A stretch of DNA of 64,000 bases from an uncultured Gemmatimonadales bacterium (lineage in GTDB: Bacteria; Gemmatimonadota; Gemmatimonadetes; Longimicrobiales; Gaopeijiaceae), in contig CAWELD010000003.1 in NCBI GenBank assembly GCA_963809895.1, positions 608,001 to 672,000 of the forward strand. Reading direction: 5' to 3'. The notes beneath the pieces are model-generated. The model was given only the letters and a program-made list of their open reading frames with translations. It made no database searches and was not told the DNA's origin. Within the stretch, counting starts at the first letter, position 1. Each line of letters opens with the position of its first letter. Below, piece by piece: positions 21,632 to 37,290 of this stretch. The translations under genes were made by a program, and so were the position numbers.

Positions 21632-23314
21632 ATGAGCACTGTCGCCGGCGCCCACGCGGGCCTGGATCGGGAGACGCTGGACCTCATTCTGGCGTCCATC
21701 CAGGACTTCGCCGACCAGAACCTGCCCACCGAGCTCCTCCTGGAGCTGGACGCCACCCACACCTTTCCGGAAGACCTGGTCCGCGCCATGTGCGGCGAGT
21801 TGGGCGTGCATCTGCTCTTCATCCCCGAGGCCTACGGAGGGATGGGCGGCGGGGCCTTCGACGTCTACCGGGTGTGCGAGCTCATGGGGGCCATGGACCT
21901 GAGCATCGCCACCGGCGTCCTGGCCACCTTCCTGGGCAGCGATCCGATCCTGTGGGGCGGCACCGAGGCGCAGAAGGAGCGCTGGATGACCCGGATTGCC
22001 GAGGAAGGTCTCCTCATGGCGTACGGCGCCACCGAGCCCGAGGCCGGCAGCGACCTGGGCGCCCTGCGCACCACGGCCACCCCGGTTCCGGCCACCGCCG
22101 AGACGCCGGCGGGCTACCGCATCAACGGCGCCAAGATGTGGATCAGCAACGGCGGGTACGCCGACCTCTACAGCGTGCTGGCGATGGCCCCGGCCGGGCC
22201 GACCTGGTTCGTGGTGGAGGCCGGCAGCGAAGGGCTGTCGGCGGGCAAGCCCGAGGACAAGCACGGCATTCGCGCAAGCAATACCGCTGCCCTCGCCTTC
22301 GAAGACCTGTTCGTGCCGGCGGACCAGCTCATCGGCGACCGGGAGGGACAGGGGCTCGTGCAGGCCCAGCTCGTGTTCGGCTACACGCGGCTCATGGTGG
22401 CCGCCTTCGGCCTGGGGGCCGGCTGGGCCGCATTGGAGCGGGCGCTCACCTACTCCACCACGCGCATCCAGGCCGGCGGGCCGCTGTCCGAGAAGCAGGG
22501 CTACACGCACAAGCTCATCGTGCCCCACGCCTGCCGCCTCGAGGCAGGCCGCGCCTTCATCGAGGAGACCGCGGCCCGGATCGACGCCGGTGAGGGCAGC
22601 CTCAACACCGAGGGGGCCATCGCCAAGTACGTGGCCACCGAGGCCGGCAACGAGGCGGCCGACGCCGCCATCCAGGCACTGGGCGGCTACGGCTACACCC
22701 GGGAGTACGTGGTGGAGAAGATCCGCCGTGACGTGCGCATCACCACGATCTACGAGGGCACGTCGGAGATCATGGAAATGACCATCGCCCGGGATCGCTG
22801 GCAGGAACACCTCAAGAGCCGCGGCCGCCACTACCACGACCGGGCCGCGGAGCTGGAGGGGCTGGCCGCCACACGGCCCGAGGTGGGCGCCGAAACCGCG
22901 GCGCTGGCCCACCACGCGCTGGCCGAGGTGCTGGAGCGTGCCCGGGTGGCGCGCCTCACGCGCAACCAGCACGTCCTCTTCCGCCTGGGGGCGCTCATCG
23001 CCGCCGTGGAGAGCGCGGGCGCGCTGGCCAGGAGAGCCGCGAAGGCCCTGGCGGGCGAGCTTCCCGCCAAGGGACTGGCGCGGCTCGCTCCCGACGCGTA
23101 CGCCGCGCTCAGCCGCTGCTACGCACGGGATGCGGCGGCGCGCGTCGCCGCCGAGGGCGTGCGTTGGACCGTGGGCGGCGACGGGGTGGACGCCTCGGAG
23201 CAGGGGGCCTTCGAGGCAGGGCTGGGACTGGCGGCCATCCACCGGGCGCAGGCGGGCTTGTTGGCGGACATGGACCGGGTGGCGCGGGGACTCTACGAGC
23301 GGCTCGAGGGTTGA
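21632..23314 (+). CDS. Acyl-CoA dehydrogenase with C-terminal extension
   Basis: [39 protein letters not shown]. Confidence 0.92.
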
Positions 23315-23385: not shown

Positions 23386-26300
23386 ATGGCAGGCACGGTC
23401 GACAGGGCCATCGCCATCGTGGGCGTGGGGGCGATCATGCCCGACGCCGCCGACGCGGACGCCTTCTGGCAGAACCTGGCGGACGGACGCTACAGCATCA
23501 GCGACGTCCCGCCCGAGCGCTGGGATCCCGACCTCTACTACGACCCCGACCCGGCGGCGCCGGACAAGACGTACTCCCGGATCGGCGGCTGGGTGGGCGC
23601 CTGGGATTGGAATCCCCTGGCCTGGCGGCTGCCCATCCCGCCCCGGGTGAGCGACGTCATGGATCTGGCCCAGAAATGGGCCATCGTCACGGCCCGGCAT
23701 GCCCTCCTGGACTACGGCTGGCCCGAGCGCGCGCTGAACCCCGAGCGCACGGCGGTGATCCTGGGGAACGCGCTGGGCGGCGATACCCACCTGCTGTCCG
23801 CGGCCCGCATCCTCTTTCCCGAGGTCGGCGACGAGCTCGCCCACGCGCCCACCTTCCAGAGCCTGCCGGCAGAGGTGCGAGGCGCCGTCATGGAGGAGTT
23901 GCTGGCCGGCGTGCGGAGCCGAATTCCGGACATCACCGAAGACACCATGCCCGGCGAGCTCAGCAACATCGTGGCCGGGCGGGTGGCGGCGGTCTTCGAC
24001 TTCCGCGGGCCCAACTTCGTCACCGACGCTGCCTGCGCGTCGGCCATGGCCGCCGTGAGCGCCGCCGTCGAGGGCCTGGAGGAGGGAGATTACGACACGG
24101 TCCTGACCGGCGGCATCGACGCCAACATGAGCCCGTCCACCTTCGTGAAGTTCTGCAAGATCGGCGCGCTGTCGGGCACCGGGACGAGGCCCTACGCCGA
24201 CGGGGCCGACGGCTTCGTCATGGGTGAGGGCGCCGCCACCTTCCTGCTCAAGCGCCTGGAGGACGCCGAGCGGGACGGCGACCGGGTGTACGCGGTGATC
24301 CGCGGACTCGGAGGCTCCAGCGACGGCCGGGGCAAGGGCATCACGGCCCCGAATCCCGTGGGCCAGCGCCTCGCCGTGGCCCGCGCCTGGGAGCGTGCGG
24401 GGCTCCGTCCCGAGGCCGGCGACATGGTCGAGGGGCACGGCACCTCCACGCGGGTGGGCGACGTGGTAGAGGTGGAGAGTCTCGGGCACGTCTTTCGCGA
24501 CTGGGGACTGGCCTCGGGGTCGGTGGCTCTGGGCTCCGTCAAGTCCAACATCGGGCACCTGAAGGCCGGCGCCGGCGCCGCGGGGCTCTTCAAGGCGGCG
24601 CTGGCGCTCCATCACAAGCAGCTTCCACCGAGCCTCAACTTCGAGCGGCCCAACCCGGCCATCGACTTCGCCGCCTCGCCCTTCCGGGTGGTGACGGAGC
24701 TCGCGCCCTGGGACAAGCCGGGCGGCGATGCGGTTCGGCGGGCCGGCGTGAGCGCCTTCGGCTTCGGGGGCACGAACTTCCATGCCGTGCTGGAGGAGTA
24801 CGTGCCCGGGCGTCTCGGGCGTCGTGCGCCCACGAGCACCGGCGCCGAGCTCGAGCGTCCCGGCGTTCCCGGCAATGGACACGCCACGAGGGCAGGTGGT
24901 ACGCCTCCGGCTTCTGGTGGCCAGCCTCCGAGGATGCCGCTCCGAGGAGCGCTCCTGGTGGGGGCGGCCACCGACGCCGAGCTGGCCTGGCGTCTACGGC
25001 AGGTAGCTGCCGAGGCGGCGGCCGGTCAGGCGCCGCCCCCGGGTATGCCTCTGGCTCGCGACCTGGAAGCGCCGGTGCGGGTGGCCATCGACTACGGCGA
25101 CGCCGAGGAGTTGGCGGCGGGTGCCGAACAGGCCGCGACCGCGCTGGAGGAGGGCGACGCCGGGCGCTGGAGAGCGCTCCGCAACAAGGGCGTGTTTCTG
25201 GGTCGGGGCCGGCCCGGCGAGGTGGCGTTCCTCTTCACCGGGCAGGGCTCGCAATACGTGGGAATGCTCCGGGAGCTCCGGCGCCTCGACCCGGTGGTGG
25301 CGGCCACCTTCGATGAAGCTGACGGCATCATGACGCCCCTCATCGGCGGCCCGCTGACGGATCGCATCTTCGTGGACGAAGACGACGAGGCGGCGGTGGC
25401 CGCCGCCGAAGAGGATCTCAAGCAGACCGCCATCACCCAGCCCGCGGTGCTCACCGTCGATACGGCACTGGCCCGTCTCATGGGCTCGTTCGGCATCCGT
25501 CCGGACATGGTCATGGGCCACAGTCTGGGCGAGTACGCCGCGCTGGTGGCGGCGGGGGCCATGACCTTCCGGGACTCCCTCATGGCGGTCTCGGCCCGGG
25601 GCCGGGCCATGACCGACCTGACACTGGGCGACAACGGGACCATGGCCGCGGTCTTCGGGGCCGTGGACCGGGTGGCCGAGCTGGTCGAGGCCATGGACGG
25701 CTACGTGGTGGTGGCGAACCTGAACAGCACCAAGGAGTGCGTCATCGGCGGCGCCACCGAGGACATGGACAAGGCCATGGAGGCGCTCCGGGACGAGGGG
25801 CTCCGGGTGGTGCAGTTGCCGGTGAGCCACGCCTTCCACACGCGCATCGTCGCCCCGGCTTCCGAGCCCCTGTCCATCACGCTGCGCGGTCTGGACCTGC
25901 GGCCGCCCGAGATTCCCATCGTGGCCAACGTGGACGGCGAGTTCTACCGCATGGAGCCCGGCAGCGAGGCCGGAATCGTGGACGTGCTGGCGACCCAGAT
26001 CGGTGCGCCGGTGCAGTTCGTGAAGGGGCTGCGCACGCTGTACGAGGCCGGGGCCCGCATCTTCGTGGAGATGGGTCCCAAGCGGGTGCTGTACGGTCTC
26101 GCGGAAGATGTTCTGGGCGAGCATGACGACGTGACCACCCTCTACACGAACCACCCGCGTACCGGCGACGTGGTCGCCGCCAACCGCGCGCTGTGCGGGT
26201 TGTGGGCCGCGGGGGTGGGAGAGGGAGCAAGGGAAGAGGTGGCGGCCTCGACGCCCGACCCCGTGGCGCCGACGGCGCCAGCGGCCGGTCCCGAGGACCG

Positions 26301-29300
26301 CTACCTGACGCTGGGCCGCATGTTCGCGGACTTTCTGGACCAGAGCTTCCAGGTCTACGGGGGTGAAGGACGCCGCCCCCAGGCGACCAGAGTAGGCATC
26401 ACCGGAGCATCGCTCGGACTTCCGGGCACCGAAGGCGTGCTGGCCGATGACAACGCGGCGCGGCTTCTGGAAGGCACGCAGCTCATCGAGGCCGTGCCGG
26501 CCGCCGTGCGCACGGGGATGCTCGGCCGGCGCATCACCCGCCTGGTGAAAGGGAGCGGTGGGGAGGCGAGCTTCGAGACCATCGCCGACGAGAGTGACGT
26601 GGTGAAGCTCGCCGGGCAGGGCAGAGACGAGGCGCTGGTGGAGCGCTACGGGTTCCCCCGGGATCGGGTCGCCGCACTGGACCGGGTAACCCGGCTCGCC
26701 ATCGCTGCCGGGATCGATGCACTGCGCGACGCGGGCATCCCCCTGGTGCGACGCTACCGTACCACCACCACCGGCTCGCAGCTACCCGAGGGATGGGAGC
26801 TGCCCGAGGAGATGCGGGACGACACGGGCATCATCTTCGGGTCGGCCTTTCCGGGAGTCGACACCCTGGTGCGCACCCTGGACGCCTATCACGAGGATCG
26901 CACGCGTCGCGCCCGGCTGGATGAGCTCCGGACCCTGCGCGACGCCGGGGCCGATCACATGGATTCCGAGGCCCGGCTGACGCTGGAGCGGCGCCTCGCC
27001 GAGGCCAAGGCGGCCGTGGAGGAGGAGCCCTTCCAGTTCGACCGCCGCTTCCTGTTGCAGGTCCTGGCCATGGGCCATTCCCAGTTCGCCGAGTACATCG
27101 GCGCCCGGGGACCGAACATTCAGACGAACGCGGCCTGCGCCACGGGCACGCAAGCCGTGGCGCTGGCCGGGGATTGGATCGAAGCGGGGCGTTGCCGCCG
27201 CGTCATCGTGGTCACTGCCGACGATGTCACCAACGAAGCCATGTTCCCCTGGTTCGGCGCGGGCTTCCTGGCGTCGGGGGCGGCGGCCACCGACGCTCGC
27301 GTGGAGGACGCGGCGCTCCCCTTCGACAGGCGGCGCCACGGCATGATCGTGGGCATGGGCGCCGCGGCTCTCGTGGTCGAGGATCTGTCTTCGGCCGCGG
27401 GGCGCGGCCTGGATCCCATCTGCGAGTTGTTGGGGACCGAGGTGGCCAACAGCGCTTTCCACGGCACCCGGCTGGACGTGGAGCACATCGCCGAGGTCAT
27501 GGAACGGCTGGTGGCCGGGGTGGAAGCCCGCCACGGGCTGCGACGCGACGAGCTGGCCCGGGAGCTGGTCTTCGTCTCGCACGAGACCTACACGCCCGCT
27601 CGGGGCGGTAGCGCCTCGGCCGAGGTGCGAGCCCTGCGCCACGTGTTCGGGGCGCGGGCCGACGACGTGGTGGTGGCCAACACGAAGGGATTCACGGGGC
27701 ACCCCATGGCCGTGGCCATCGAGGACGTCCTGGCCGTACGCATGCTGGAGACCGGGATCGTGCCGCCGGTGGCGAACTTCCGGGAAGTGGATCCGGAACT
27801 GGGCCGCCTGAACCTGTCGCGCGGCGGGTCCTACCCCGTGCGGTACGCGCTGCGGCTGGGTGCGGGATTCGGCTCTCAGATCAGCATGAGCCTGCTGCGC
27901 TGGACGCCCCCGCCGGACGGCGCGCGCCGGGATCCGAGGCGGAACGGGTTCGCGGGCCGCGTGCGCGATCCCGCGGCCTGGAACGCGTGGCTACGGCGCG
28001 TGACCGGCTACGCGGTGCCCGAGCTGGAGGTCGAAGCGCGCACCCTCAGGTTGAGGGATCAGGGGCCGCCGAGGCCCACGCGTGTTCCGCCGCCGTCGAT
28101 GCCTGCCTCCGCCGAGGCTCCCGTCCGGACGGCCACGGCTCCGATTCCGCCGACGACACCGAAGGTCGTGGAGGCTCCTCCCGAGGTCGCGGCGCCGCCG
28201 AGCCCCGCGGTGACCGAGACGACGCCCGCGACCGCACCCGCGCCCTCCTCCTCCGAGGTGGAGTCCGAGGTGCGCGGGCGTGTGCTGGGGATCGTGGCGG
28301 AGCAGACGGGCTACCCGGCGGACATGCTGGAGCTGGACCTGGATCTGGAAGCGGATCTGGGGATCGACACGGTGAAGCAGGCGGAGATGTTCGCGGCGAT
28401 CCGCGAAGCGTACGACATCGAGCGCGACGAGAACCTGGCGCTGAGGGACTACCCGACGCTGGCCCATGCCATCGAGTTCGTGTTCGAGAAGAGGCCGGAG
28501 CTCAGGGGCGCGGGTGGCGGTGGAGTACCTGTCGCGGCCCCCGCGGAACCTGTGGCGACGGCCGCAGCGCCGCCCGCGACGCCCACCGTGGAGTCCGAGG
28601 TGCGGGAGCGCGTACTGGGGATCGTGGCGGAGCAGACGGGCTACCCGGCGGACATGCTGGAGCTGGACCTGGATCTGGAAGCGGATCTGGGGATCGACAC
28701 GGTGAAGCAGGCGGAGATGTTCGCGGCGATCCGCGACGCGTACGACATCGAGCGCGACGAGAACCTGGCGCTGAGGGACTACCCGACGCTGGCCCATGCC
28801 ATCGAGTTCGTGTTCGAGAAGAGACCGGAGCTCAGGGGCGCGGCCTCGTCGCCGTCCGCGGATCCGGTGACATCGACATCGACGTCTGGCGTCGGCGGTG
28901 GCGGAACCGGCGTCAGCGCAGGCACCGGCCGCGGCGCCCTCCTCCTCCGAGGTGGAGTCCGAGGTGCGGGAGCGCGTGCTGGGGATCGTGGCGGAGCAGA
29001 CGGGCTACCCGGCGGACATGCTGGAGCTGGACCTGGATCTGGAAGCGGATCTGGGGATCGACACGGTGAAGCAGGCGGAGATGTTCGCGGCGATCCGTGA
29101 CGCGTACGACATCGAGCGCGACGAGAACCTGGCGCTGAGGGACTACCCGACGCTGGCCCATGCCATCGAGTTCGTGTTCGAGAAGAGACCGGAGCTCCGC
29201 TCGAGGGTGGGTGCGGCGGCGGCCACCGACGCTCCGGCAGAGGTGGGATCGGAGGAGACCGCGACCGGCACGGTGGCGGCCCCGGCGCCTCGGTCCTCCG

Positions 29301-31801
29301 TGCCCCGGGGATCCATGGAGGCGGCCCGGGCGCTGCCCCGACGGGGTCCGGTGGCACGTCTCAGGCCTCCGGCCACCCGCTTCGACAGCACGGGCGTGGA
29401 GTTGGCCGAGGGCGACCGCGTGGTCGTGATGCCCGACGAGGGCGGCGTGGGCGCGGCCCTGAAGGGACGCCTGGAATCCCGGGGCGTGACGGTCCTCGAC
29501 ATCGACGGCGACCCGTCCGTGGCCGACATGGAATCCATGGCCGAGGCCTGGGCCGCCGCGGGACCCGTGCGAGGCGTGTACTGGCTGCCGGCTCTGGACG
29601 GGGTGGATCAGGCGTCGTTGGAGGACGCCGGGTCGCGGCGTGCCGCGCTGCACCGCCGCGTGAAGCTTCTCCACGCCACCATGCGGGCCCTCTACGAGCG
29701 GGTCGGTGCGTCCGGGACGTTCCTGGTCGCCGGCACCCGCCTCGGGGGCCGGCACGGGTACGACGAGGACGGGGCCACCGACGTGGCCGGAGGCGCCGTC
29801 ACCGGGTTCACGAAGTCCTTCGGCCGCGAGCGCCCCGAAGCGCTGGTGAAGGCGGTGGACTTCGAGCCGTCGCGCAAGACCGCGGCGCTGGCGGACCTGC
29901 TCCTGGAAGAAACGCTCCACGACCCGGGCGTGGTGGAGGTGGGTTACGCCCGGGATCGCCGGTGGGCCGTGGCATTCGAGGACCTGCCACCACACGAGCC
30001 CGAGGGTGTCGAGAGCACCTGGAAAGGCGGTGGTGTCCATGTCGTGACCGGCGCAGCCGGGAGCATCGTGTCGGCCATCGTCGCCGATCTCGCGTCGGCA
30101 GGCGGCGGTACCTTCTGGCTCCTGGACCTGACGCCCGAACCCGACCCGGCCGACCCGGACCTGCAGCGCTTCCGCACGGACCCCGACGGCCTCAAGCGCG
30201 AGCTCTTCGAGCGCATGCGCGCCCGGGGCGAGCGGGCGACCCCGGCACGGGTCGAGCGAGCGCTGGCCGGGATCGAGCGCTCGGCCACGGCACTGGCCAC
30301 CATGGAGGCGGTGCGGGCGGCGGGAGGCCGGGCCGTGTGGCGGAGCTGCGACCTGCGCGACGCCGAGGCGGTGGCGGAGATCCTGGCGGAGCTCCGGGGT
30401 CAGCATGACGCGGTCGACGTGCTGATCCACGCCGCAGGGCTGGAGATCAGCCGCTCGCTCCCGGACAAGTCTCCAGAGGAGTTCGCGCTGGTCTTCGACG
30501 TGAAGGCCGATGGCTGGCTGAACCTGATGGCGGGCCTGGCCGACACGCCCCTGGGAGCCGCGGTGGTGTTCAGCTCCATCGCCGGGCGCTTCGGCAACGC
30601 GGGTCAGGCCGACTACAGCGCGGCCAACGACCTGCTCTGCAAAGCGGTGTCGGCGCTGCGCCGCACGCGGCCCGACACCCGGGGGCTGGCGCTGGATTGG
30701 ACGGCGTGGGCCGACATCGGTATGGCCGCACGCGGCTCCATCCCAGCCATCATGGCCCGGGCGGGCATCGACATGCTCCCGCCCGAGGCGGGCATCCCGG
30801 TCGTGCGGCGCGAGCTGGGCCTCGCAACCCGCGCCGAGCTGGTGGTGGCACAGGCGCTGGGGACCATGCTGGAGGACCGGGCACCGCGTGGGGGGTGGCC
30901 GGCGGAGAGCGGCTCGTCTGCTGGGCCCATGGCGGGCATGGTGACCCGTTTCTCGCCCGAAACCGGGCTCGACATGGAGGTCACCCTGGATCCCGCGGAG
31001 CAGCCGTTCCTGCGGGACCACCGCATCGACGGGGTGGCGGTGCTGCCCGGGGTGATGGGGCTGGAGGCCATGGCCGAAGCCGCGCTGACCGGCTTCCCCG
31101 AGCTGCGCCTGGTAGCGGCGGAGGACGTGCGTTTCCTGGCGCCGTTCAAGTTCTATCGCGACGAGCCGCGCACCGTCTACACGAGCGCCCGCTTCGCCCT
31201 CGAAGGTGACCAGGTGGTGGCGGACTGCGTGGTGCTTGGCCGCCGCACCCTCCACGGGCGAGCGGAGCCCGAGGTCACGGTCCACTTCAGGGGTCGGATC
31301 CGCATAGCGGTCCAGGACGCAGCCGCGGCCTCGTCGGAGGACTGGCCCGCAGAAGAGGCGGAGGGCGTCGAGGCTTCGGACATCTATCGCCTCTTCTTCC
31401 ACGGTCCGGCATACCAGGTGGTGGCCAGGGCCTGGAGGGCCGATGGGCGGGTGGAGGGACGTCTTGCCGCGCCGCTTCCGGCCAATCACGCGCCGGCGGA
31501 GCTGCCGACGGTGGCCGCGCCGCGTCTGGTGGAGCTTGCCTTCCAGGTGGCGGGACTGGCCGAGATGTCGGCCTCTCGCCGCATGGGGCTGCCCGACGGC
31601 ATCGGCCGGTTGGAGTTCAGTGGCGGGGTCCCCGGCGAGGCCGAGGGCATGGTGGCCGTGGCCCGGGCGTCGAACGGCGAGGAGCACGAGGTCGTCGTGA
31701 TCGACGGAGACGGCCGCGTCCGCCTCGAGCTCACGGGCTACCGGACATCGGCGCTGCCCGGGGTGGTGGACGCCACGCCGCTGGAGAGGCTCAAGGGCTG
31801 A
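23386..31801 (+). CDS. Type I PKS/FAS-like megasynthase KS-AT-KS-ACP-ACP-ACP-KR-DH (apparent +1 frameshift between 28871 and about 28950)
   Basis: KS1 DAACAS/EGHGTST/NIGHLK; AT GHSLG/HAFH; KS2 NAACAT/SHETYT/FTGHPM; 3x [44 protein letters not shown]. Confidence 0.9.
28258..29197 (+). repeat. Three near-identical ~245-bp ACP-coding repeats
   Basis: Copies at about 28258-28503, 28588-28833 and 28952-29197, separated by Ala/Pro-rich linkers. Confidence 0.93.
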
Positions 31802-32538
31802 TGTCGGTGATCCATCTGGCTCGGGCCGAGGTCCGGGAGGTCCCTTCGGGGGATGGCTGGCTGGCGTCGCCCGAGCGCCAGGAACAGCCGCCGCCCCGCT
31901 TCGGCAAGCGACGGTCCGACTGGCGCCTGGGCCGCTGGACGGCGCACCGGGCGTTGCAGGGCTTTCTCGAGGTGGAGGAGGTGGCCCGGGGCCAGGGCGA
32001 GCCCTACGTCCAGGCCGGCGAGGACGGTGCGCCGCGGGTGCGCTGGACCGGCGGGACCGGGCCTCGCCTCGTGGTGTCCCTCAGCCACAGCCACGGGGCC
32101 GGTTTCGCGGCCGTGGGGCCGGGGCCGGAGCTGGCGCTGGGGGTCGATCTCGAGCGGGTGGAGCCACGCAGCGCGGCCTTCATCCGCGACTACCTCACGC
32201 CCGCAGAGCAGGCGACCATCGCCGCCGCACCCGAGGATCACGTGCGGGTCCTGGCCAACCTGGCGTGGAGCGGCAAGGAATCGGTGCTCAAGGCGCTCCG
32301 CGAGGGACTTCGCATGGACCCGGCGACGGTCGAGGTGGATCTGGAAGGGCCGGCCCGCGCGCTGGCGGACGCCGGCTCCGGGGTCTCCGAGGTCCCGTGG
32401 CAGGGCCTCTCCGTGGTGCGAGCGAACGGTGGCTCGCTCCACGGTTGGTGGCGGCTGGAGGACGGTTTCGTGTGGACCATCGCCTGCGACGCCAGCGTGC
32501 AGCTGCGGGAAGAGGCGCCGGTCGCCCGCGGCGCCTGA
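31801..32538 (+). CDS. Sfp-type 4'-phosphopantetheinyl transferase
   Basis: VSLSHS, LGVDLE, WSGKESVLKA; start overlaps the PKS stop. Confidence 0.9.
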   Translation: MSVIHLARAEVREVPSGDGWLASPERQEQPPPRFGKRRSDWRLGRWTAHRALQGFLEVEEVARGQGEPYVQAGEDGAPRVRWTGGTGPRLVVSLSHSHGAGFAAVGPGPELALGVDLERVEPRSAAFIRDYLTPAEQATIAAAPEDHVRVLANLAWSGKESVLKALREGLRMDPATVEVDLEGPARALADAGSGVSEVPWQGLSVVRANGGSLHGWWRLEDGFVWTIACDASVQLREEAPVARGA

Positions 32539-32622
32539 AGTCCCTGCGCTCTTCATCCCCGGGCCGGATTGCGTAGGTTTCGGGCTGGATGCCCTCCCCC
32601 CACCCGAGCCCGCAAGGTGAAC

Positions 32623-34976
32623 GTGAGCGACACGGCTTCCGATGCCGGGCGCAGCGCCGGCAAGGACTTCATCCGGTCCATCATCGACCGGGACGTGGCC
32701 GAGGAGCGCTACGACGAGATCGTGACGCGCTTCCCGCCGGAGCCCAACGGCTACCTGCACATCGGCCATGCCAAGTCCATCGTGCTCAACTTCGGTCTCG
32801 CCGGCGAGTACGGCGGACGCTGTCATCTGCGCTTCGACGACACCAACCCCCTCACCGAGGACGAGGAGTACACGGCCTCGATCCAGAGCGACGTGCGCTG
32901 GCTGGGATTCGACTGGGGCGAATATCTCTATTTCGCCTCGGACTACTTCGAGCGCATGTACGAGGTGGCGGAACGCCTGATCCGGGCGGGGAAGGCGTAC
33001 GTGGATTCGGCGACCGAGGAGGAGATTCGCGAAGCCCGCGGTACCGTGACCACCCCCGGGCGTCCCACCGCCTATCGCGACCGGTCGGTGGAGGAGAACC
33101 TGGATCTGTTCCGGCGCATGAGGGCTGGAGAATTTCCCGACGGCGCCCACGTCCTGAGGGCGCGCATCGATCTGGCGCATCCGAACATGATCATGCGCGA
33201 TCCCGTCTTCTACAGGATCCGGCACGCGCACCACTACCGCACCGGCGACGACTGGTGCATCTACCCGCTCTACGACTTCGCCCACTGCCTCGAGGACGCC
33301 TTCGAGGGCGTGAGCCACTCGCTGTGCACGCTGGAGTTCGACAACAACCGCGAGATCTACGACTGGATCCTGGAGCACGCCGGGTTCACCGAGCCGCGCC
33401 CCCACCAGTACGAGTTCGCCCGTCTGGAGCTCGAATACACGGTGCTCTCGAAGCGCAAGCTCATTCGCCTCGTCAAGGAGAAGCACGTCGACGGTTGGGA
33501 CGATCCGCGGCTGCCCACGCTGGCGGGGCTCCGGCGCCGGGGCGTGCCCCCCGAGGCCATCCGGCGGCTGTGCGAGATGGTGGGCGTGGCCAAGGCGGAC
33601 TCCACCGTGGACCTGGGCAAGCTGGACTACGCCATCCGCGACGTGCTCAACGACACGGCACCGCGGCGCCTGGCGGTGCTGGACCCGCTCAAGGTGGTGA
33701 TCACCAACTGGCCCGCGGGCAAGCAGGAAATGCTGTCGGCGCCCCACTTCCCGGATCGCGGAGCCGAGGATGGTACCCGCGATGTCCGACTCGGCCGGGA
33801 GCTGTACATCGAGCGTGACGACTTCGCCCTGGATCCCCCACCGGGCTGGAAGCGCATGGCGCCGGGCTGGGAGGTGCGCCTGCGCTACGCCTATGTGGTG
33901 AAGTGCGAGGAGGTGATGACGGATCCCGACAGCGGACGGGTGACCGAGCTGCGCTGCACCTACGATCCCGACACCCTGGGCGTGAATCCCCCGGACCGGC
34001 GGGTGGCGGGAACCGTGCACTGGGTGTCCGACCTGGACGCCGTCCTCGCCGAGGTGCGGCTCTACGACCGCCTGTTCTCGGTGCCCGATCCCGACGACGT
34101 GCCGGAGGGGGGCGACTTCACCGACAACCTGAACCCCGACTCCCGCGTGGTCATGTCCGAGGCGCTGGTGGAGCCGGCGCTGGCGGCCGCCGAGGGTCCG
34201 GAGCGGGTGCAGCTCGAACGGTTGGGGTTCTTCGCCCGCGATCCCGACTTCGCGCCGAGCCATCCGGTCTACAATCGCGTGGTGACGCTGCGCGACAGCT
34301 GGGCTCGCCGCCGCGCCGAGGCGGACGCGGAGCGGGGCGGGCGGTCCAGCAGGCGACCACGCCAGCGCGCCGCCGCCTCCCCAGACGCCCGAGGAGCGCA
34401 TCTCCCACGAGCGGCGCGAAGCGCGCCAGGGAGATCCGGAGCTGGCCGAGCGTTTCCGCCGGTACCAGGACGAGCTGGGGCTCTCGCTGGAAGACGCCGA
34501 CATCGTCACCGGATCCCGTGCCCTCTCGGACTTCTTCGAAGCGGCGCTGGACGTGCACGACGATGCCGCCTCGGTGGCGTCGTGGGTGACCAACGATCTC
34601 CAGGCCGAGCTCAAGGATCGCGAGCTGGAGGCGCTGCCCTTCGGGGGCCGCCAGCTCGGGCGGCTGGCAGCGCTGGTGGACGGAGGCACGGTCTCGCGCA
34701 GGGCCGCGCGTCAGGTCCTCGAGGAGATGGCGAGCCAGGGTGGCGATCCCGAGGACCTCGTGCGCAGCGCTCGGTCTGGAGAAGCTCAGCGACCCCGAGG
34801 CGCTCGCCGCGGTGGTGGCCGAGGTGCTGGAGGCGTGGTCCGAGAAGGTGGAGGAGTACCGAGCCGGCAACACCAACCTCCTGGGCCTCTTCATGGGGCA
34901 GGTCATGAAGCGCACCGGTGGCACGGCGGATCCGGCCCTGGCGCGCCGGCTGCTCCAGGAAGCGTTGCAGGACTGA
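32623..34976 (+). CDS. glnS: Glutaminyl-tRNA synthetase with C-terminal YqeY-like domain (frameshifts near 34330-34430 and 34765)
   Basis: TRFPPEPNGYLHIGHAK, LSKRKL, QLERLGFF; YqeY pieces (LGLFMGQVMKRTGG.ADP) lie in shifted frames. Confidence 0.9.
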
Positions 34977-35046
34977 GCGCCTCGCGCCTGCCCGGCCGTC
35001 CCCGACCTCCAGCCAACGACTCGCTCACCGAGAACGAGGATTCCGC

Positions 35047-36502
35047 GTGTCCATCCGCGTCCGCTTTCCACCGTCTCCCACCGGCTACCTGCACGTGGGT
35101 GGCGCCCGTACGGCCCTCTTCAACTGGCTGCTCGCGCGACAACAGGGTGGCAGCTTCGTGCTGCGCATCGAGGATACCGATCGCGAGCGATCCGACGAGG
35201 CGCACGTCCAGGCGATCCTGGAGGGCCTCACCTGGCTGGGCTTGGACTGGGACGAAGGACCGTTCTTCCAGAGCCGGGGCGTGGAGCGGCATCGTGCGGC
35301 GGCGCGCCGCCTCCTGGAAGAAGGGAAGGCGTATCGGGACTTCACCGATCCCGCCGAGCTGAGGGCGGAGGCCGAGGCGAGAGGCATCGGGCATCCCAGC
35401 GTGCTGGCCCGGGAGAAGGCCGACGCCATGAGCGCCGACGAGATCCAGGAGCGCGTGGACAGGGGCGAGCCCCATGCCGTTCGCCTGCGGGTGCCGGAAG
35501 GCGAGACGCGCTGGCACGATCTGGTCCATGGCGACATGGTCTTCGCCAACGCCGACCTGGACGATCTGGTGATCCTGCGCAGCGACGGCTCGCCCATCTA
35601 CAATCTGGCCGTGGTCTCCGACGATGCCGAGCAGGGCATCACCCACGTGGTCCGGGGCGACGACCACCTGTCCAACACGCCGAAGCAGATCCTGATCTAC
35701 GAGGCGCTGGGGCTCGCCGTGCCCACCTTCGGGCACGTGCCCATGATCCTCGGACCCGACGGCAAGCGCCTGTCCAAGCGTCACGGCGCCACCGCCGTGG
35801 CCGAGTACGCCCGCAGCGGAATCCTCCCGGAGGCCATGGTCAACTTCCTCGCGCTCCTGGGCTGGAATCCCGGCGACGAGCGCGAGGTCATGGATCGCGC
35901 CGAGCTGGTGCGGTCGTTCGCCATGGAACGGGTGCAGAAGAAGAGCGCCGTCTTCGACATGGCCAAGCTCGAGTGGCTGAACGGGCAGTATCTGGCCGAG
36001 AAGCCCGCCGAGGCGCTGGCGCCCCTGGTCACGGAGCGTCTGGCGGAGCGCGGAATCACGCCGGAGCGCTGGAGCGCGCGGGGTGAGGCGTGGTTCGAGG
36101 CGTTGGTGGATCTCCTCAAGACCCGGTCCCGGACCGTCGAGGAGCTGGCGGCTCAGGCCGTGCCGTACCTGGTGGACGATCCGGAGCTGGACGCCGATGC
36201 GGTGGCCAGGCACTGGAACAAGGATCCCGAGGGCGTGGCCACCCGCTTGCGCCGATTGCGCTCGGTCTACGAGGACTGCCCATGGCAGGCGCAGGCCCTG
36301 GAAGAGCGCCTGCGGGCGCATGGCAGCCGAGCTCGGGCGTCGGGGCGGGAAAGGTGATCCATCCGCTGCGGGTGGCGCTCACCGGTCAGGCTGCGAGTCC
36401 CGGGATCTTCGACGTGCTCCTGGTTCTGGGGCGCGACACGTCGCTGCACGGATCGACCGGGCCCTGCACAGACTGGGCGCGGAGCACGAAAAGCTTTCTT
36501 GA
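35047..36502 (+). CDS. gltX: Glutamyl-tRNA synthetase (frameshifts at about 36318-36450)
   Basis: [30 protein letters not shown]-terminal [14 protein letters not shown] lies in an alternate frame. Confidence 0.92.
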
Positions 36503-36528: not shown

Positions 36529-36645
36529 AACCATCCGTTTCCGAGCCGGTATCAGGTGTCCGGAGCGGACGGCGAAATCGGAACCGCGGATACCGTTTTG
36601 CCGCGGGCTTCTGCCCCATTGGGGCGTTTCAGTACGGAGTCCGGG

Positions 36646-37290
36646 ATGTCCTTGAGCCTGAGCGAGATCGAGAGAAAGATCCTGGATTACATGGTGTCGT
36701 ACCTGCGTACGAACACCTATCAGCCGTCGATCCGGGAGATCGGCGAGCGCTTCGGCATCAAGAGCACCAAGACCGTCTCCGAGCACCTGCAGGCGCTGGC
36801 GGAGAAGGGCTTCCTCGAGCGCGACCCGTCGCGTTCCCGCGGGGTCCGCATCCTGGGCGTCGATCTCAGCCCCGACGCCGTGTCCGTTCCCCTCTTCGGC
36901 GACCTGCCCGAGGACCGCATGGCGCGCTCCGAGGGCAACCTCACGGTGGATCGCCGCTTGGCCGGCGCGAAGGGCGGGTTCTTCGTCCGGGTGCGTGGCG
37001 ACGAGATGGCGTTGGTGGGCATCCAGGACGGGGATCTCCTCCTGGTGGAGCCCGCGGCCGTGGACGAGGTGCCCGATGGAAGCCTGGTGGCGGTCCGCAG
37101 CAACGGGTCCCGTCCCACCTTCCAGCGCCTGGGCAAGAACGGGCGCAGCGTCTCCCTGCAGCCGCTGTCCGTGGGAGCCCCGGCGACGGTGGTGGAGGAG
37201 CCGGGCCGGCTGAATCTGGTGGGACGCGTCGCCGGCCTCTTCCGGCGCATGGACCGTCCCGACACCACGGTGAGTCTCACCGCCCACTGA
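36646..37290 (+). CDS. LexA-like repressor with degenerate S24 peptidase domain
   Basis: wHTH YQPSIREIGERFGIKSTKTVSEHLQALAEKGFL..SRG; C-terminal VRGDEM..GIQDGDLLLV. Confidence 0.85.
   Translation: MSLSLSEIERKILDYMVSYLRTNTYQPSIREIGERFGIKSTKTVSEHLQALAEKGFLERDPSRSRGVRILGVDLSPDAVSVPLFGDLPEDRMARSEGNLTVDRRLAGAKGGFFVRVRGDEMALVGIQDGDLLLVEPAAVDEVPDGSLVAVRSNGSRPTFQRLGKNGRSVSLQPLSVGAPATVVEEPGRLNLVGRVAGLFRRMDRPDTTVSLTAH

Follow-up and report, generated by a model that had tools for sequence, protein, structure and literature searches.

Threonine at the phosphopantetheine site of a Type R-like lipid synthase family and a co-inherited phosphopantetheinyl transferase

The window analyzed here, a 64,000-nucleotide stretch from an uncultured Gemmatimonadales bacterium, carries a Type R-like iterative type I fatty acid synthase/polyketide synthase (FAS/PKS) gene with three tandem acyl carrier proteins (ACPs) and, directly behind it, a gene for an Sfp-type phosphopantetheinyl transferase (PPTase). 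Our data show that in this synthase family Thr occupies the 4'-phosphopantetheine (Ppant) position of an otherwise normal ACP fold, and that the PPTase is distinct, intact, and inherited together with the synthase. From these sequence comparisons we consider it likely that the enzyme is a working iterative lipid synthase whose carriers receive Ppant on Thr from the co-inherited PPTase; the transfer itself, which would add 340 Da to the Thr, is inferred. Ppant attachment to Ser is treated as invariant, and a carrier domain that lacks this residue is usually taken to be dead.

Threonine at the carrier site

The synthase gene (23386-31801, plus strand like all window features named below) has the domain order KS1-AT-KS2-ACPx3-KR-DH, with ACP1 at 28258-28500, ACP2 at 28588-28830, and ACP3 at 28952-29194. 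An earlier note on this DNA had pointed to ACG (Thr) codons in the three ACPs, and re-reading of the window found them at 28369-28371, 28699-28701, and 29063-29065, each inside [13 protein letters not shown]. The helical-bundle fold and a PF00550 match are present, while the Ser expected at the start of helix II is replaced by Thr in all three copies. In alignments this Thr falls on the Ser that bears Ppant in the PigH ACP and in other solved ACPs. In an AlphaFold model of ACP1 (36-row alignment, pLDDT 91), which superimposes on solved ACP structures with TM 0.77-0.87, it is residue 1 of helix II. No other conserved Ser was found in the ACP domain, the highest Ser share of any column being 96/341 in the alignment of distant representatives.

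The earlier note had argued from the three copies that a sequencing error was unlikely. Its conclusion stands, on other grounds: the three copies share 95-98% DNA identity, differing in only 6-14 of 260 bases, so they are not independent witnesses, and an error at the Thr site is excluded since the family uses all four Thr codons there (ACG 135, ACC 132, ACA 11, and ACT 11 of 289 in 80 loci picked by their ACPs plus the window). A sequencing error, a dead gene, or the reading of ACN codons as Ser can, to the extent that sequence allows, be practically dismissed. What speaks for such an artefact is that the synthase gene is broken in the window, as are neighboring genes. Against it, all four Thr codons are in use across many phyla, ACG also encodes two structural Thr residues of the same ACP domain, full-length relatives keep the catalytic motifs, and an independent contig reads through without the break.

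The break, which the earlier note missed, splits the gene into two open reading frames (ORFs) in different frames, 23386-29100 (KS1-AT-KS2-ACP1-ACP2) and 28898-31801 (ACP3-KR-DH), through an extra base at 28888 in the ACP2-ACP3 linker. A contig from an unrelated public run (single contig, depth 3.1) is identical over 157 letters (28820-28977) except that it lacks the base at 28888. Since the base is missing there, the neighboring glutaminyl-tRNA synthetase (GlnRS) gene is also frame-split, and most relatives are single chains of 2600-3000 aa, the extra base is most likely an assembly error and the gene one ORF of 2804 aa. None of the public sequencing runs contained half of the window's words. 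One metatranscriptome yielded near-identical contigs at 29059-29187, 29158-29399, and 29606-29804, a weak hint of expression of the synthase.

Conservation of Thr was followed in several locus sets, which partly overlap and whose related sequences are not independent. In the 80 ACP-picked loci (the best of at least 571) and the window, 289/289 motifs carry Thr; this set is biased because the Thr motif was among its search patterns, and it was used for codon usage and neighborhood only. Its loci span Gemmatimonadota, Acidobacteriota, Chloroflexota, Myxococcota, Actinomycetota, Elusimicrobiota, and others, with 1 to 7 ACP copies per synthase. A selection by KS2, blind to the ACPs, covered the best 120 of 3802 proteins, 117 of which have an ACP, and gave 382 Thr, 1 Met, and 0 Ser among 383 copies. 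For more distant relatives, the best 150 representatives of 50% clusters (KS2 identity 36-70%) were searched with a profile built from Ser ACPs only; among the 353 domains found, 10 degenerate or cut ones were excluded, and the 343 well-formed copies comprised 333 Thr and 10 Ser, Ser being the sole replacement in well-formed copies while degenerate ACP-like domains carry other residues. Per protein, 119 of the 150 were all-Thr, 3 all-Ser, and 1 mixed, and 27 had no ACP. Loci picked by the PPTase (231/231 motifs) or by KR-DH (65/65) had Thr throughout. The homolog alignment that the earlier note called for therefore returned Thr, not Ser, in close and distant homologs alike.

Several observations weigh against a Thr-linked cofactor. 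Two structural Thr residues of the ACP domain are kept about as well (329 Thr and 9 Ser of 341; 312 and 18 of 335; compared with 333 and 10 at the site), so conservation by itself would look alike whether the residue holds a cofactor or caps a helix. The members with Ser show that the chemistry does not require Thr. In addition, the S36T variant of E. coli ACP reportedly cannot receive 4'-PP and fails to complement (PMC3340395, in the part of the paper available), and a preprint (10.1101/2025.06.16.659903) uses S36T likewise in its accessible part; thus at least AcpS rejects Thr. The Thr domains could instead be unmodified docking or spacer domains, with the synthase using a Ser carrier in trans (AcpP) or CoA thioesters and the PPTase serving that carrier or doing another job. 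This is improbable in our judgment. It draws on S36T being a standard way of killing an ACP, on a substitution spectrum at the site like that of the structural Thr residues, and on the degenerate ACP-like domains (10 of 353 matches), which show that non-carrier copies are tolerated. On the other hand, the site residue is freely lost in degenerate copies and not in well-formed ones, the copy number of 1 to 7 resembles that of functional tandem-ACP synthases, the 80 ACP-picked loci yielded no dedicated Ser ACP, and there the only Ser carrier (in locus L007) belongs to an unrelated AMP-ligase, and the genome has a second, AcpS-like PPTase of a type that also occurs in genomes without the synthase.

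The Ser-bearing proteins of the distant set are P0180, P0229, P0240, and P0254, P0229 being mixed (Ser-Thr-Ser). In a KS2 tree of 123 proteins plus the window, with 5 KS1 rows as the outgroup, made by a quick method and with an uncertain root, each of the four fell into a different clade and had Thr-bearing sisters there (SH-aLRT 97-100). Because the four are nested in different Thr clades, Ser looks like a repeated reversion from Thr, as far as such a tree can tell; the Ser-bearing members retain the same catalytic motifs. Gln three residues past the site is present in 330/332 readable Thr copies and in 3/10 Ser copies, the 7 losses tracing to two proteins, P0229 and P0180. This may hint that Gln+3 matters for loading Thr.

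A search for the motif of the Thr ACPs with a site codon not starting with A, so that AGY Ser codons lay outside it, gave at least 120 loci with 162 Ser, 1 Thr, and 1 Pro motifs; the motif is thus also found with Ser, in other Pfa-like synthases, in line with the Thr being at the Ppant position. Among 80 of these loci with flanks, 78 had other Pfa-like layouts; the remaining two were L127, a Thr-family locus with a Pro copy, and L138, a collapsed relic of a Thr-family cluster with Ser. In L138 (218-547, minus strand) the FeS, electron-transfer flavoprotein (ETF), and acyl-CoA dehydrogenase (ACAD) genes are intact and the start of KS1 is fused to one ACP with Ser (TCG), with a contig end close by. 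Degenerate ACP-like domains lacking the site residue occur among good copies in one family branch (P0159, P0162, P0165, P0167, P0172, P0180, P0183). Rearranged members (P0142, P0147, P0169, P0201, P0222, P0260, and others) carry additional Thr ACPs ahead of KS2 or close to the N-terminus, and some are 3500-4000 aa long.

The co-inherited phosphopantetheinyl transferase

The PPTase gene (31801-32538; 245 aa, PF01648) begins at the last base of the synthase stop: TGA (31799-31801) shares one base with the ATG at 31801, the overlap of which the earlier note had spoken. The model of the protein (pLDDT 94) has the pseudo-dimeric Sfp fold, its best structure matches being AASDHPPT, PptT, and Sfp (TM about 0.6-0.67). 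It aligns to the GxDxE and WSxKES motifs of Sfp and has SxSH, GxDxE, and WxxKExxxK, as expected of an Sfp-type PPTase; GxDxE and WxxKExxxK are kept in 99-100% of 142 PPTase sequences from 159 partly overlapping loci. Beyond these, its clade has residues of its own (GCDxExxExR, F..D[YF]F, and GLRxDTR). Thus the protein resembles the group II enzymes Sfp, AASDHPPT, and PptT in fold and catalytic motifs and differs from them in sequence (13-21% identity) and in its clade-specific residues.

The PPTase is co-inherited with the synthase as a distinct clade, as sequence comparison shows. In the 70 ACP-picked loci reaching the DH end, it was present in 62 and absent despite room in 3, and 5 were too short to judge. 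Conversely, the best 80 of at least 578 PPTase-picked loci had the synthase upstream in 73, only an acetyl-CoA carboxylase (ACC) gene in 5, and nothing in 2. A cultured organism, Nonomuraea monospora JCM 16114, also has the pair (locus L281), with two Thr ACPs, an ACC, and the PPTase. Among 41 related genomes, KS2 was found in 5, and the same 5 gave PPTase scores of 190-267 bits, while 21 others scored at most 73 bits and 15 gave no match; the weak matches in the 21 synthase-free genomes are housekeeping-type PPTases. The PPTases beside Ser-type Pfa-like synthases (39 of the 78 loci) scored no higher than 105 bits with the Thr-clade profile and lacked the clade-specific residues. The co-occurrence that the earlier note had proposed to look for thus exists: a distinct PPTase clade travels with the Thr synthase. 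High scores arise partly by construction, the profile having been built from Thr loci, which tempers the case; for this reason, and as kin are not independent, the PPTase data speak for co-inheritance and not for activity.

In the genome (G000, 95% complete) two PPTases were counted, and its four carrier domains are AcpP plus the Thr ACPs of the synthase. The second PPTase is AcpS-like with a long C-terminal extension (L081, 961-1869, minus strand; G000 C3) and lies below all NCBIfam cut-offs. Since this second PPTase is available to AcpP and no further carriers were found, nothing but the Thr ACPs stands out as a client of the clustered PPTase. The earlier note saw no Ser-type ACP in the locus; the window contains none, and the stand-alone Ser ACP that could have supplied the function is found neither at the locus nor in the genome, AcpP excepted.

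A further possibility is that the Thr is modified otherwise, bearing an arm from CoA other than plain Ppant or an acyl group esterified directly to its oxygen, with the unusual KS2 acting on that tether. The divergence of the PPTase clade, with its many private conserved residues, would fit, as might further oddities apparent in the family's sequences (a second active KS, Glu in the DH, no enoyl reductase (ER) or thioesterase (TE)). However, the PPTase still has the Sfp fold with every canonical catalytic motif, the KS Cys-His-His and AT motifs suit thioester chemistry, and the Ser revertants have the same catalytic motifs. We regard this alternative as more doubtful still than unmodified spacer domains.

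Proposed loading and relation to known systems

For Ppant on Thr, we propose that the PPTase would bind CoA and Mg2+ and deprotonate the Thr hydroxyl to give a Thr-O-phosphodiester, much as ApbE does with FMN on Thr. The recognition surface may consist of the PPTase residues GCDxExxExR, F..D[YF]F, and GLRxDTR and the near-invariant Gln+3 of the ACP. AT would load malonyl units, which in many relatives would come from an ACC encoded in the cluster; KS1/KS2, KR, and DH would elongate the chain; and the upstream ACAD, with ETF in about half of the loci, might stand in for the missing ER. To our knowledge, all described acceptors of Sfp-type PPTases are Ser. A review likewise has PPTases acting on conserved serines in the part available (PMC8007912). 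Cofactor transfer to Thr is nevertheless chemically feasible, because in the Mg-dependent reaction of ApbE a Thr or Ser of the target protein, Thr being preferred, attacks a nucleotide pyrophosphate to form a phosphoester-linked cofactor (PMC12052999, in the accessible part). ApbE differs from the PPTase in fold, cofactor (FMN from FAD), and targets, so the likeness is one of mechanism only.

The cluster type itself, which the earlier note did not recognize, is known. The Type R secondary lipid synthase was described from Koribacter, Solibacter, Elusimicrobium, and Roseiflexus (Shulse and Allen 2011, PMC3098273). In that paper, Type R is defined by a single pfaA homolog with KS-MAT-CLF/KS-ACP(3-6)-KR and a downstream PPTase with an hShxH (P1b') motif, with an ACC gene between them in some. 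The window gene matches this type by layout and description, the 2011 reference proteins YP_001875990, YP_001277223, and YP_824341 being outside the comparison: its KS1-AT-KS2-ACPx3-KR-DH order has the single-gene layout, the PPTase at 31801 has VSLSH, an ACC lies between DH and PPTase in loci L008 and L058, and Acidobacteriota, Chloroflexota, and Elusimicrobiota are represented in both. A scan aimed at the named Roseiflexus genomes gave 16 other Chloroflexota loci and none of those named. Differences were also found. The paper labels KS2 a chain-length factor (CLF), but its Cys-His-His set is complete; the present family has two more constant parts, a DH at the C-terminus and an ACAD upstream; and the main text of the paper mentions neither threonine nor serine (0 occurrences) and gives no product. 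No later work on Type R was found in a literature search that largely excluded subscription papers. Nor was a natural Thr-linked Ppant carrier, in a search from which most subscription papers and the 2011 supplementary figures were absent; unlike the cluster type, the Thr linkage seems not to have been described before.

The synthase also resembles PfaA/PfaE: its best NCBIfam match is TIGR02813, its tandem ACPs lie in the same surrounding motif, and a dedicated PPTase adjoins the cluster. It differs from PfaA in scoring 698.5 and 211.5 bits (the gene was scanned in two pieces) against a cut-off of 1010, and from PfaA and the Pfa-like LGIDS synthases in that those have Ser at the site, another domain order, and PPTases that stay at or below 105 bits against the profile of the Thr clade. 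Companion pfaB/C/D genes are absent: the neighbors differ, and the only other KS/AT matches of the genome, outside the window, are 28-37% identical.

We lean, with some reservation, towards Type R as a natural Thr-Ppant system, in which an ancient pair of ACP and PPTase, spread over many phyla and with an ACP closed to housekeeping PPTases, would act as the private on-switch for a lipid of common soil and sediment bacteria. If true, a family present in several hundred genomes and many phyla breaks the Ser rule, which would change calls of 'inactive' carriers in genome mining. The pair would also be naturally orthogonal and of use in biotechnology, including protein labelling, and making the Type R lipid may need the cognate PPTase instead of Sfp or AcpS.

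Gene layout, neighboring genes, and likely product

The catalytic motifs are those usual for KS, AT, KR, and DH domains, and the earlier note's view that they are intact was borne out, with one variant in the DH. KS1 (23404-24801; PF00109/PF02801/PF16197) has an intact Cys-His-His set (DAAC 24025, EGHGTST 24430, GHLK 24553). AT (25228-26133; PF00698) has GHSLG at 25516 and HAFH at 25825, a malonyl-type motif. KS2, the family-specific second ketosynthase (26326-28005, borders approximate), has NAAC at 27127, SHET at 27577, and KGFTGH at 27685, and its Cys-His-His motifs are kept in relatives. The catalytic part of KR (30032-30715; PF08659) contains TGAAGSI at 30047 and YSAAN at 30602. The PKS-type DH (30968-31762; PF21089/PF14765) has HxxxGxxxxP at 31019 and, at 31532-31546, ExxxQ, in which Glu replaces the Asp of the usual DxxxQ motif, as in most close relatives. 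Domain annotation found no ER or TE in the synthase.

The neighbors of the synthase in the window are an ACAD family gene (21632-23314; PF02771/PF02770/PF00441), AcrB-type transporters, and GlnRS. An ACAD gene lies upstream of KS1 in 62 of 63 loci with room, with ETF alpha nearby in 27 of 59. A single-chain ACC of about 1850 aa is often found between DH and PPTase, or separate carboxylase subunits come after. The single-chain ACC is eukaryote-like (BC-BCCP-ACC central-CT) at L008:13243-18825 and L058:13061-18622; G000 has only separate subunits elsewhere. The cluster is patchy, occurring in 4 of 40 relatives. This gene content suggests a de novo, malonyl-based pathway to a long-chain lipid, with ACAD as a putative trans-acting reductase or desaturase. 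A long-chain lipid is probably the product, and this is the weakest step of the explanation. In one locus only, genes for a polyhydroxyalkanoate (PHA) regulator (PF07879) and phasin lie between synthase and PPTase (L074:14144-15037), a possible link to storage granules.

Downstream in the window (32569-36357), GlnRS has its GatB/YqeY tail in another frame (from 34553) and the anticodon domain of a glutamyl-tRNA synthetase (GluRS) is cut; these breaks are probably further assembly frameshifts. A putative LexA-like repressor with DNA-binding and S24 domains follows at 36556-37290, and then a TadA-like deaminase.

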